A stretch of DNA of 64,000 nt from a bacterium. Its GTDB lineage: Bacteria > Patescibacteriota > Minisyncoccia > Minisyncoccales > CG1-02-41-26. Made by a program: the position numbers and the translations under genes. The notes beneath the pieces are model-generated. The model did no database searches. It was not told the DNA's origin and worked only from the letters and a program-made list of their open reading frames with translations. The stretch lies in the NCBI GenBank assembly GCA_030648255.1, contig JAUSHZ010000007.1:24404-88403 (forward strand). Reading direction: 5' to 3'. This document shows, in pieces, positions 30,519-49,115 of this stretch; position 1 is the stretch's first letter, and each line of letters opens with the position of its first letter.

Positions 30519-31142
30519 TCAAACGATTTTTGTTCCAACCAAAAACTGAAAAATCTCCATCAAATAACTTCCAAAATACGGGAATACAAAATAAATAAAC
30601 ATAATAAGAAAAAATATTCCAAATTGGTTTAAAAAAGCTATGGCGTTTTCTGCTGATTTTGGTAAAAAAGCAAACAAAATATGCGAGCCGTCAAGCGGAG
30701 GTATCGGCACCAAATTAAAAAATGCCAATAGTAAATTTATCCAAACAACTTCCAAGAAAATCGCCCCTAAATTTTGGCTAAATAAAGAACTGCCCAATGG
30801 TAAAAAGCGCAAAACTAAAGTAAAAATCAAAGCCACAGAAATATTAGCCAAGGGACCTGCCATAGCCACCTTAGCTTCGCCATATTTTCTATCTCGCAAG
30901 GCATACGGATTTATTGGCACTGGTTTTGCCCAGCCAATCAACATACTGCTATGAGATATTACCAAAAGCAAAGGCACAATTATTGAGCCAAACAAATCAA
31001 TGTGTTTTATGGGGTTTAAGGTTATTCTCCCCATATCTCTGGCGGTTCTATCTCCCAAGCGTTCAGCCATGGCTCCATGGGCCACTTCGTGGATAATAAT
31101 AGAAAAAACCAAAACAATTACGCTAAAAATAATATCAATCAT
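30519..31142 (-). CDS. Site-2 protease family (M50) zinc metalloprotease
   Basis: 207 aa polytopic; HEVAHG in TM1 and the NLVPIPPLDGSH motif. Confidence 0.85.
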   Translation of the reverse strand: MIDIIFSVIVLVFSIIIHEVAHGAMAERLGDRTARDMGRITLNPIKHIDLFGSIIVPLLLVISHSSMLIGWAKPVPINPYALRDRKYGEAKVAMAGPLANISVALIFTLVLRFLPLGSSLFSQNLGAIFLEVVWINLLLAFFNLVPIPPLDGSHILFAFLPKSAENAIAFLNQFGIFFLIMFIYFVFPYFGSYLMEIFQFLVGTKIV

Positions 31143-31190
31143 TGTTTTTTCTTACATATTATACTAATATGATTAAAACTACAAATTAAA

Positions 31191-31366
31191 TGGTGGGCTA
31201 CCCCAGCTCAAATTTTGCGAAGTAATGCGGGGGCAACCCGCTTCGCCCACCGCCAGCTGGCGGTAAGGGATGGGGCTATTCGCCCCACGCAGGTTGCAAG
31301 ATATTTTTTTAAGTTTAATTAAATTTTATATAAAGTGGTGTTAGCGGAGGCAAAATTTGAGCGGGG
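31191..31366. other. GC-rich structured island between the M50 protease gene and rpmB (strand unresolved)
   Basis: 17-bp long-range stem ccccagctcaaattttgc (31201-31218) / gcaaaatttgagcgggg (31350-31366). It encloses hairpins gcgaag..cttcgc, ccgccagctggcgg and tggggc..gcccca. Confidence 0.5.
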
Positions 31367-31401
31367 TGCTCATTTTGTTAATTCGCTTCGCTCAAAACAA
31401 A

Positions 31402-31686
31402 ATGGCAAAAGTATGTACAATATGTGGCAAGGGCTCATTAATGTTTGGAAAATTAAACAAGTTAAGGGGAAAATATAACCCAGCCCCAAAAGTAAGAAAA
31501 TACCCAAACCTTCAATGGCTAACTGTGCCAAAAGATGTTCGCAATAAAAAATTCACTAAGCTTGCTGGCCAAAGAATCGAGGCCTGTACTAAGTGTATTA
31601 AAACTTTATCTAAGCCCGTGCGACAGAAAAAGCAAAAAGAATCTCCAAAAGAAGAAGTAAAAGAACCCGCAAAAATCGGGGCATAG
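31402..31686 (+). CDS. rpmB: 50S ribosomal protein L28
   Basis: MAKVCTICGKGSLMFGKLNKLRGKYNPAPKVRKYPNLQW.. Start at the internal ATG 31402; Lys-rich C-terminal tail. Confidence 0.88.
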   Translation: MAKVCTICGKGSLMFGKLNKLRGKYNPAPKVRKYPNLQWLTVPKDVRNKKFTKLAGQRIEACTKCIKTLSKPVRQKKQKESPKEEVKEPAKIGA

Positions 31687-31700
31687 TATATCAGTATTAT

Positions 31701-31760
31701 GCAGGGCTGGGGGTCCTGTGAGCTGGGTGCGATTCCCAGTGCCCCGACTGTAAAGCCCGC
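31701..31760 (+). other. T-arm-like capped hairpin in the rpmB 3' UTR
   Basis: gc(a)gggct/agcccgc and gggg/cccc stems capped by ctggg-tgcgatt-cccag (5-bp stem, 7-nt loop, T-loop-like). Confidence 0.4.
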
Positions 31761-31832: not shown

Positions 31833-31862
31833 TTGACAATGGTTATATTTTTTTGCTAATAT
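31833..31862 (+). promoter_or_regulatory. Strong promoter for the small RNA at 31868-32040
   Basis: TTGACA - 18 nt - TAATAT. Confidence 0.6.
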
Positions 31863-31867
31863 AACAG

Positions 31868-32040
31868 TGTGCTTGTGGGGCGTCAGCCCTATTCGGCTAA
31901 TTCCTAAGCTGAAGGCAGGCACATTTACATCTTCTTGCGGGGCTGAAATGCAGAAAATCGGCTCTACTGCGGGGTGCGAGTAGTCCCTTTACGGGGTATC
32001 CAAAGCGCTACGAGGGAGGGTTGCCGTCCTCCCAGCTCCA
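31868..32040 (+). ncRNA. Small RNA with tmRNA/tRNA-Ala-like terminal domain (identity unresolved)
   Basis: 5' hairpin uguGCUUG../..CAGGCACA (31868-31923). GGGGCUG (31939-31945) pairs with CAGCUCC (32033-32039) including G3-U. Preceded by the arm GGAGG-guugccgu-CCUCC. 3' ..CCCAGCUCCA matches the E. coli ssrA 3' end from memory. No tag ORF found. Confidence 0.4.
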
Positions 32041-32247
32041 CAAGAGGATGTATTTTTTTATATAATCGTTATCTCGCAATCTAAATGCTGTGGCAATTTG
32101 AATTTCTTCTAATTCTATTCCATCGCATAATATTTTTACAGCTTCAATGGAGCATAAATAATCTAAACTTCCAATTCTTTTCACCAAGCAATACCCACCC
32201 CGTTTGCTTGTTTTATTTTGGTAAATTTTATCTGGATACTTAACTAT

Positions 32248-48956: not shown

Positions 48957-49115
48957 ATTTTTTTATTATATTATAATTATATTAGAGCTGGCAATAATAG
49001 CTTTTAGGAGACCACGAGGGTACCCTCCGCGCATGTGGAGGTCTTAATACTTGTGGTAAATCCTAGGAGACGCCACTCTATAAAAATCATCTCTTTTGAG
49101 GTGTTTTTTATTATT

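Follow-up and report, generated by a model that had tools for sequence, protein, structure and literature searches.

Structure and position of the leader

The window analysed here is a 64-kb stretch of an AT-rich Patescibacteria genome (contig JAUSHZ010000007.1; positions are counted from its first letter). At 31190-31404 a GC-rich, structured island lies between a divergent site-2 (M50) protease gene and a small gene on the plus strand. The sequence-only reading had described this island as lying upstream of rpmB, with a hairpin occluding the start codon, and had proposed either a leader responsive to ribosomal protein L28 or an independent small RNA on an unresolved strand. GC content was 0.62-0.72 at 31200-31289 vs 0.18-0.40 on the flanks. 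The plus-strand sequence (226 nucleotides, nt) folded at -82.4 kcal/mol (z = -3.7) and none of 200 shuffles was as good; the minus-strand fold of the island had z = -6.0. A repeat search detected three of the stems: the long-range one (31202-31218/31350-31366, 94% complementary over 17 nt), the one at the start codon (31371-31379/31396-31404, 100% over 9 nt) and gcaacccgc/gcaggttgc at 31233-41/31289-97 (89%). GC content and folding thus confirmed the island, and each listed stem was found where it had been read. The features of the locus are as follows (P1 to P4, helices).

31190..31404, plus strand: whole leader element, copy 1, about 211-215 nt (blastn and alignment to relatives; nhmmer family matches)
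30519..31142, minus strand: divergent M50 protease gene (PF02163; named site-2 protease by the sources)
31402..31686, plus strand: downstream gene, a divergent L28-like protein of 94 amino acids
31190..31192, plus strand: pseudo-start ATG, within the left AAATGG repeat; can pair with the CAT of the anti-start
31192..31218, plus strand: 5' strand of P1, segment 1; core CCCC-A-GCTCAAATTTTGC at 31201-31218, extension to 31192
31227..31233, plus strand: G-rich segment which could pair locally with CCCC(A)GC in the 5' arm as an alternative hairpin, P1a; moderate support
31233..31241, plus strand: 5' strand of P2, GCAACCCGC (RNAalifold and pair counts)
31239..31249, plus strand: junction motif CGCTTCGCCCA (CGCUUCGCCCA), near-invariant in type-1 cores
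31250..31263, plus strand: lineage-specific hairpin CCGCC-AGCT-GGCGG, window and relative L001 only
31272..31286, plus strand: P3 hairpin GGGGC-UAUUC-GCCCC, loop C-UAUUC-G almost invariant
31289..31297, plus strand: 3' strand of P2, GCAGGTTGC
31298..31349, plus strand: AT-rich linker, variable in sequence and length, unconserved in alignment A3
31350..31374, plus strand: 3' strand of P1, segment 2; GCAAAATTTGAGCGGGG (GCAAAAUUUGAGCGGGG) at 31350-66, running into the anti-start GCTCAT at 31368-73
31371..31379, plus strand: 5' strand of P4, segment 3, anti-start CATTTTGTT (alignment to covariance model R1)
31380..31395, plus strand: apical region of P4 with the conserved motif TCGCT-N-CGCTC
31396..31404, plus strand: 3' strand of P4, segment 4, including the start codon ATG 31402-31404

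The product of the downstream gene matched L28 profiles weakly (TIGR00009, E = 0.0025, over 1-58 of 58, i.e. the full model; PF00830, E = 0.7). Because of these weak matches we call the gene L28-like; the name rpmB holds only to this extent. A longer TTG-start open reading frame (ORF) of 109 amino acids (31357-31686, plus strand) traverses the 3' arm of P1 and P4, and the 94-amino-acid product was not on record in an exact lookup in a gene-position collection. Therefore, gene callers may extend the L28-like gene into the leader.

The 5' arm of P1 reads CCCC-A-GCUCAAAUUUUGC at 31201-18, and the P1 duplex was calculated at -25.5 kcal/mol for the core and -36.4 kcal/mol with the extension. Several motifs recur within the element. 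UUCGC and UCGCU occur three to four times per element, and the junction motif returns as CGCTTCGCTCA at 31384-94. The apical region of P4 shows partial complementarity to GAGCGGGG, a stretch of the 3' arm (mean -9.3 vs -7.2 kcal/mol in shuffles; 11 of 45 members significant). A promoter inside the AT-rich linker was considered and dismissed: there is no conserved -35/-10 and a consensus scan found no site. The same holds for an intrinsic terminator after P2, where the T-run does not follow directly and is missing from relative L092.

A dispersed family of leaders in Patescibacteria

Homologues were collected by a metagenome scan with the arm pattern ACCCC-N0-1-GCTCAAATTTTGC, in which an exact 18-mer from the P1 arms was the search key. 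The 85 stretches returned contained about 55 full-length homologues, 50 of them distinct, at 65-80% identity (blastn and nhmmer). Covariance model R1, built on the 70-position 3' module, had no match in 471 kb of unrelated loci. Three candidates (L106, L131 and L110) were discarded as chance pattern matches inside coding or GC-rich DNA. Hosts identified by exact-sequence lookup were members of the Patescibacteria group, the Parcubacteria group and Candidatus Sungbacteria; Paceibacteria were also among the hosts. Two pattern scans of viral contigs yielded no match and six chance matches in GC-rich phages, respectively, and blastn against phage records gave no match to the element.

In about 46 of the 50 copies an ATG or TTG, in sense orientation, marks the exact end of the element. 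It precedes at least 20 unrelated genes. According to Pfam, Cpn60 was encoded downstream of about 12 copies, with the leader lying between the groES stop and the groEL start. Other chaperones downstream were HSP70 (dnaK), Cpn10 (groES) and HSP20, and in total groEL, dnaK, groES or hsp20 followed in about 40% of the sampled copies. Further downstream genes encode Fe/Mn SOD (sodA), L11 (rplK), L33 (rpmG), S17 (rpsQ), L35 (rpmI), L7/L12 (rplL), NusG, LeuRS (leuS), SHMT (glyA), ribulose-phosphate epimerase, inositol-1-phosphate synthase, dCMP deaminase, NUDIX and PIG-L proteins and ferredoxin. By eye, an L27-like gene follows the leader in L175. None of the approximately 50 distinct copies had an L28-like or M50 gene nearby.

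Rfam 15 was searched with the whole window at gathering thresholds; a tRNA and DUF3800-V were reported elsewhere and nothing at the island. At E<=10 the region 31050-31500 returned tfoR alone (12 bits, E = 3.4), a chance match, and ten other family loci at E<=1 gave nothing at the element. These searches covered ribosomal-protein leaders, riboswitches, ribozymes, 6S and HEARO along with the other families, and they agree with the earlier statement that no L28 leader of such form is known to be described. Full-text literature searches did not retrieve a description either. The island is apparently one copy of an undescribed family of structured leaders, about 200 nt long, of Patescibacteria. 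Judged from the sequences collected, the leader appears to have spread to many highly expressed genes which begin with MAK or MSK.

In one case, L113:4112-4415 and L134:2605-2908 are identical over the 3' end of nusG and the leader, and are followed by rplK and groES, respectively. Two explanations are possible: a chimeric assembly joined through the repeated leader, or genuine recombination at it.

Covariation of the helices and the functional strand

P2 and P3 were tested on a MAFFT alignment (A3) that was not fitted to any structure. P2 was paired to 97.5% with double changes in seven of eight pairs, and P3 to 98% with double changes in all four pairs. Together, they had 128 double-change cells vs 39 in shuffles, and controls with slid strands were 28-46% paired. 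For P4 the sequences were realigned with model R1 (A6), i.e. the alignment was fitted to the model. P4 was 83% paired vs 66% in shuffles (slid controls, 40-62%), with 133 vs 42 double-change cells; 0 of 500 shuffles were as high. Unfitted folding of individual sequences agreed: the start codon was fully paired in 43 of 45 hairpins with a median of -14.2 kcal/mol, and every z was below -2. Individual compensations were CAA/UUG in L146 and L111 and AUUCAU/AUGAAU in L104. The covariation proposed earlier as a test was thus seen in P2, P3 and P4, and the hairpin occluding the start codon is a property of the family. Among the stems listed for the window, gcaacccgc/gcaggttgc, ggggc-tattc-gcccc, the ATG hairpin and the long-range stem were conserved. 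The gcgaag..cttcgc stem was not conserved and competes with P2. ccgccagctggcgg is an insertion of the window lineage, which is missing from L092 and all metagenome copies; these have ACAA in place of the hairpin at 31250-31263.

The P1 arms were invariant in the family sample. This is uninformative since they had served as the search key. In two divergent members, a second copy in the window and L101, P1 was kept by compensation. P1a was present in about 30 of 40 members, with a mean duplex energy of -9.3 vs -6.5 kcal/mol in shuffles. Its pairing follows classes: CCCCAGC copies pair mostly with (G)CTGGG and CCCCGC copies with GCGGGG, a covariation at class level.

Ratios of G.U to A.C were 13:6 in P2 plus P3 and 54:24 in P4, favouring the plus sense. 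The C.A position in P2, which had left the strand open, is a family-wide trait (C.A 16, C-G 16, U-A 6). All gene-linked copies share one orientation, and each of them pairs the start codon of its own gene. Because G.U counts, fixed orientation and start-codon pairing agree, we assign the function to the plus strand. A minus-strand RNA, suggested by the better z-score and single C.A positions, was rejected in view of the fixed orientation, P4 and the G.U:A.C counts.

The length of P1 raises the question of RNA processing. P1 may be an RNase III site at which cleavage separates cistrons (groES|groEL, nusG|rplK), and P4 would protect the 5' end of the mature mRNA and thereby give highly expressed genes a long half-life. 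RNase III sites that stabilise or activate a downstream mRNA are known from the lambda N leader and the phage SP82 stabiliser. With 17-25 nearly perfect base pairs (-25.5 to -36.4 kcal/mol) P1 goes well beyond typical closing stems of riboswitches and reaches the length of an RNase III processing stem (about 20 bp or more). Many copies lie inside operons a few nt past the upstream stop codon, the genes have high expression and not a single pathway in common, and in two variants (L175, L180) the 3' arm and P4 occur alone. Processing would, however, leave unexplained why the start codon is inside P4 and covaries with the first codons, and why the UAUUC core is conserved. We consider processing as the main function unlikely, albeit worth keeping in mind.

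Gain or loss of the island at the L28-like gene

The M50 protease served as an anchor for fetching relatives, and nothing more. Relatives were retrieved via its protein sequence; from a profile scan of genome contigs, L001 alone was useful among the matches listed, most of which came from distant phyla. Sources assign the M50 product to Candidatus Pacebacteria, and among the matches listed the closest genome record belongs to Candidatus Paceibacterota. The island was missing in L081 (88% M50 identity), L082-84 (85%), L085 (about 83-86%, varying with the alignment) and L087/L088 (78-79%). In the island-less relatives, five of eight close ones, the gap between the M50 and L28-like genes was 46-72 nt, and its sequence read ...actacaaataaaactATGgcaaaag. 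L001 (81% M50 identity) carried an island 93% identical to that of the window. The basal L092 (71-74% M50 identity) carried a version without the CCGCCAGCTGGCGG hairpin; it was 82% identical to the window island with the last 67 nt identical, and the L28-like gene was 65% identical. Carriers were not monophyletic in M50 and L28 trees. The inserted block corresponds to 31191-31401 (about 211 bp), with a direct repeat AAATGG at both junctions (31188-93 and 31399-404). At the L28-like gene, the island has been gained or lost as a single unit. The structure expected upstream of rpmB in relatives was present in L001 and L092 and missing in most others. Because several relatives have no island upstream of the L28-like gene, an L28-specific leader is refuted by the criterion set in the sequence-only reading; moreover, the homologues precede other genes.

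Such a pattern is familiar from mobile repeats. The element might be a selfish or neutral miniature repeat (like miniature inverted-repeat transposable elements, Correia or ERIC sequences) which targets ATGGCAAA-type sites, has the P1 arms as terminal inverted repeats and forms hairpins as by-products. Correia/ERIC-type repeats likewise measure about 100-200 bp, have long inverted repeats, are co-transcribed with their neighbours and are present or absent between strains. Beyond the patchy distribution and the AAATGG repeats, the inverted repeats of 17-24 nt and the gene-less copies fit this view, and so do the identities: 82-93% for the island vs 65-87% for adjacent coding DNA. Further inverted repeats of the layout 'ACCCC-arm...arm-GGGG' with different arms exist in the host genomes. 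Yet about 46 of 50 copies have one fixed orientation and a fixed distance to the start codon, and P2, P3 and P4 covary as RNA helices, unlike in Correia/ERIC repeats. On the right, 35-45 conserved nt (P4) follow the inverted repeat, which is therefore not terminal. No transposase is linked to the element. In MSK-type copies the left ATG mismatches the fourth to sixth bases of the gene. L108 (groEL) and L124 (dnaK), which by similar coverage apparently belong to one genome, have unrelated linkers and diverged cores, which argues against a recent burst. Many near-identical copies in both orientations were not found among the sampled copies or in the 64-kb window, which is the part of the host genome sampled. 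A target-site duplication is doubtful because the left ATGxxx does not track the ATGxxx of the gene beyond subfamily effects. Taken together, a selfish or neutral repeat is improbable.

A putative start-codon-masking switch

The last 35-45 nt of the leader form P4, which holds the start codon and whose pairing is kept by covariation across unrelated genes. The upstream part consists of the conserved long-range P1 and the covarying P2/P3 core with its UAUUC loop. We regard it as somewhat better than an even chance that the island is a cis-acting mRNA leader which controls translation initiation of the following gene. How might the two parts communicate? Segment 1 (5' arm, GCUCAAAUUUUGC) resembles segment 3 (anti-start, GCUCAUUUUUGU), and segment 2 (3' arm, GCAAAAUUUGAGC) resembles segment 4 (start region, ACAAAAAUGAGC); for the MSK-type members the latter pair is CAAAAUUUGAGC vs ACAAAAAUGAGC. 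Therefore, cross-pairings are possible, and we infer that the leader may be an ermC- or attenuator-like switch built from four segments.

Such a switch would be OFF when 1:2 and 3:4 are paired and the AUG is buried. In the ON state either 2:3 would pair, or an extended 1:2/3 pairing would form with the pseudo-AUG on the CAU; both would free the AUG. Removal or capture of segment 1 would open the start codon. Candidate triggers are formation of the local P1a hairpin, heat, a factor that binds the conserved core (UAUUC), or a ribosome which terminates on the upstream cistron (groES, nusG) or sits on the pseudo-start. In 32 of 43 members an ATG lies at most 14 nt upstream of CCCC; in operon-internal copies this pseudo-start is 8-25 nt past the upstream stop codon, and a ribosome terminating there would cover the base of P1.

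Energy calculations support the predicted switch. In the window the 2:3 hairpin (-10.3 kcal/mol) and P4 (-10.7 kcal/mol) were isoenergetic, and the state with P1 and P4 (-82.4 kcal/mol) was 1 kcal/mol apart from that with extended P1 (-83.4 kcal/mol), in which the AUG is released. In predicted folds of the window copy, masking the 5' arm released the AUG. Over 40 members the median calculated probability of an unpaired AUG was 0.03 in the complete leader, rose to 0.36 on omission of the 5' arm and was 0.09 with nothing but the 3' module.

Three mutually exclusive pairings in the classical layout also bring to mind a transcription attenuator, in which the 2:3 hairpin UGAGC-GGGGU-GCUCA plus UUUU(U)GU would be an intrinsic terminator, P1 the antiterminator and P1a the anti-antiterminator. 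A consensus scan indeed flagged 31358-31372 plus TTTTGTT as terminator-like. However, the stem has 5-6 bp only. GCUC changes to ACUC, AUUC or GUUC alongside the start region, not with GAGC, and this weakens the stem in those members. The U-run is accounted for by its pairing with ACAAAAAUG, and terminator-like sites were about as frequent as expected by chance (2 found vs 1.8). We give an attenuator hardly any credence.

Among known systems, translational attenuation of ermC and cat (and attenuation of the trp type) likewise uses four consecutive segments paired as 1:2 plus 3:4 or as 2:3, and in the ermC type 3:4 buries the start, which occupation of segment 1 is predicted to free. The four-segment arrangement is seen here, too: 3:4 covaries, 1:2 is compensated, and 2:3 is predicted and isoenergetic in the window. 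A leader peptide over segment 1 as in the ermC type was not found; any Shine-Dalgarno-like AGG is just 0-2 nt from the ATG. Two readings of the upstream ATG and the 3' arm as coding were rejected. A conserved leader peptide or upstream ORF is not supported as the upstream ATG opens 1-60 codons with no common frame or length. An N-terminal extension through the 3' arm ('AKFERGAHF') is at odds with indels that are not multiples of three and with an upstream ATG in about one third of the copies. The leader further differs from ermC and cat in that a 130-nt loop, which contains a conserved and covarying core, separates segments 1 and 2, and in its location at housekeeping and chaperone genes instead of resistance or biosynthesis genes.

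Translational riboswitches similarly have a covarying multi-helix domain closed by a P1 helix, followed by a helix that sequesters initiation, and alternative pairings. The differences are the length (17-25 bp) and high sequence conservation of P1, members devoid of the 'aptamer' part and the lack of an Rfam match. A gene set related to a single metabolite, as in riboswitches, was not found: downstream are chaperones, ribosomal proteins, NusG, LeuRS, SHMT, SOD, ferredoxin and others. RNA thermometers (fourU, ROSE) share with the leader a U-rich strand (CAUUUUUGU) which pairs with an A-rich start region, and many heat-shock genes. The leader deviates in that P4 is stronger (median -14 kcal/mol), that in the major type the AUG rather than the Shine-Dalgarno sequence is covered, and that ribosomal-protein, nusG, leuS and glyA targets and a large extra domain occur. 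The targets outside the heat-shock response argue against a pure thermometer; the A/U-rich P4 is compatible with one. A resemblance to the CIRCE/HrcA operator was a partial match by eye in the window lineage only and was discarded. Autogenous leaders of ribosomal proteins likewise are 5' untranslated regions of a ribosomal-protein-like gene with an occluded start, but this leader precedes many unrelated genes, does not occur at the L28-like gene in the majority of close relatives and has no counterpart in Rfam.

Several observations weigh against a leader which switches translation. The covariation of P1 comes from two divergent copies and, as the collection was arm-based, ascertainment partly accounts for the lack of variation in P1 and the 3' arm. 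Some members (L175, L180) have neither 5' arm nor core, about one quarter of the members are without P1a, and no ORF follows copy 2, L149 and L166. Only the position of an upstream promoter-like TATTAT suggests that the island is transcribed. The predicted switch is backed by thermodynamic calculation and segment resemblance and not by 2:3 covariation; changes in GCUC go along with changes in the start region and not in GAGC. So broad a set of genes does not suggest any one ligand. Finally, a hairpin that is OFF by default on the most highly expressed genes is counter-intuitive.

Variants and gene-less copies

The window contains a second, highly diverged copy.

62655..62833, plus strand: copy 2, diverged and gene-less (R1 match at 62755-62837, 30.3 bits, E = 8e-5)

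Its arms are CCCCAGTTTTAATTTTGC (5', 62655-72) and GCAAAATCAAAACGGGG (3', 62757-73), with three compensatory pair changes in P1. A P4-like hairpin TTATTGTTTG/CAAACAATAA has no ATG, the core hairpin is a different one (GCGAAGCGC-AT-GCGCTTCGC) and the UAUUC core is lost. Copy 2 folded at -74.1 kcal/mol. It lies between two minus-strand genes and has no plus-strand gene downstream. A sub-threshold match to 6S/SsrS RNA adjoins it at 62836-62975 on the minus strand (29.1 bits vs a gathering score of 46.4, E = 3e-4).

Gene-less copies would be expected if core and P1 formed a trans-acting or protein-sequestering small RNA, often fused to mRNAs, with these copies as the ancestral form. Copy 2, L149 and L166 have arms and a hairpin, L149 and L166 end in terminator-like hairpins, and the UUCGC and UCGCU motifs are recurrent. 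On the other hand, only about three of 50 copies are gene-less, copy 2 is devoid of the UAUUC core, and start-codon pairing is the best-supported feature of the family. The independent small RNA of the sequence-only reading fits these three copies only; as an account of the family it is very improbable.

The family has a second core type, and L151:448-515 is a mini-version of the leader. In L101:11-160 the arms CCCCGUCACCAAUUUGC/GCAAAUUGGUGACGGGG enclose a canonical core. This unit is part of a tandem or nested arrangement (L101:1-330, plus strand), in which a complete alternative-arm unit comes first and a partial core next, before the canonical 3' arm, P4 and the ATG; the upstream part is cut off by the contig end. 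Repeats of the layout ACCCC plus 13-19 nt arm ... arm plus GGGG with unrelated arms and interiors were noted at L108:3931-4075, L128:3170-3291 (minus strand) and L104:3135-3245. They may belong to a wider superfamily of long-range-stem elements in the host genomes.

Neighbouring features

The L28-like gene runs into a tRNA-Pro(GGG) gene (31677-31748, plus strand), which overlaps its stop codon. Different tRNAs occupy this spot in relatives (L081:2420-2660, minus strand; L082; L085; L001), and L081 additionally has a 3' tRNA remnant followed by a different gene content (methylases, NYN and toxin-like genes). The spot looks like a tRNA integration hot spot.

On the other side of the island, at 31143-31165, the window is without about 20 bp (tagcTTGATAaaaagctgtttatcg) which are present in L001, L081 and L082. 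There, tagcTTGATAaaaagctgtttatcg provides a TTGATA -35 box 17 nt upstream of TATTAT; in the window the -10-like TATTAT alone is left ahead of the island.

A second GC-rich folded stretch on the plus strand (31866-32058; -84.6 kcal/mol, z = -5.0) ends in a T-run and is preceded by a promoter-like TTGACA-18-TAATAT (31833-31862). Rfam had no match to it, and it is a candidate independent non-coding RNA. It contains a C-UAUUC-G hairpin loop that resembles P3, which may be a coincidence; CTATTCG is not enriched in the window (5 observed vs 3.9 expected). A DUF3800-V RNA (RF02964) was located at 48983-49080 on the plus strand (41.9 bits, above the gathering score).

Implications

Patescibacteria have tiny genomes and their gene regulation is little known. 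The family is large enough for covariation analysis, and with about 200 nt its members are small enough for probing and structure determination. Block-wise gain or loss at a single locus among close relatives offers a natural experiment on the spread of cis-regulatory RNAs from gene to gene. In practical terms, gene callers may extend ORFs into the leader, as with the TTG frame at 31357.

Tentatively, and with more doubt than for control of translation initiation as such, we propose that Patescibacteria (Parcubacteria, Sungbacteria, Paceibacteria) might place chaperone, ribosomal-protein and other top-expressed genes under one portable cis-RNA switch that responds to one global signal. If so, this signal could be translation capacity, temperature or a factor bound to the UAUUC core. 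The switch could be plugged in at, or removed from, any gene that starts with ATG-GCA-AAA or ATG-AGC-AAA, and the regulon would be defined by a mobile leader and not by a transcription factor. This would constitute a simple, testable mechanism by which uncultivated bacteria coordinate their core growth and stress machinery.

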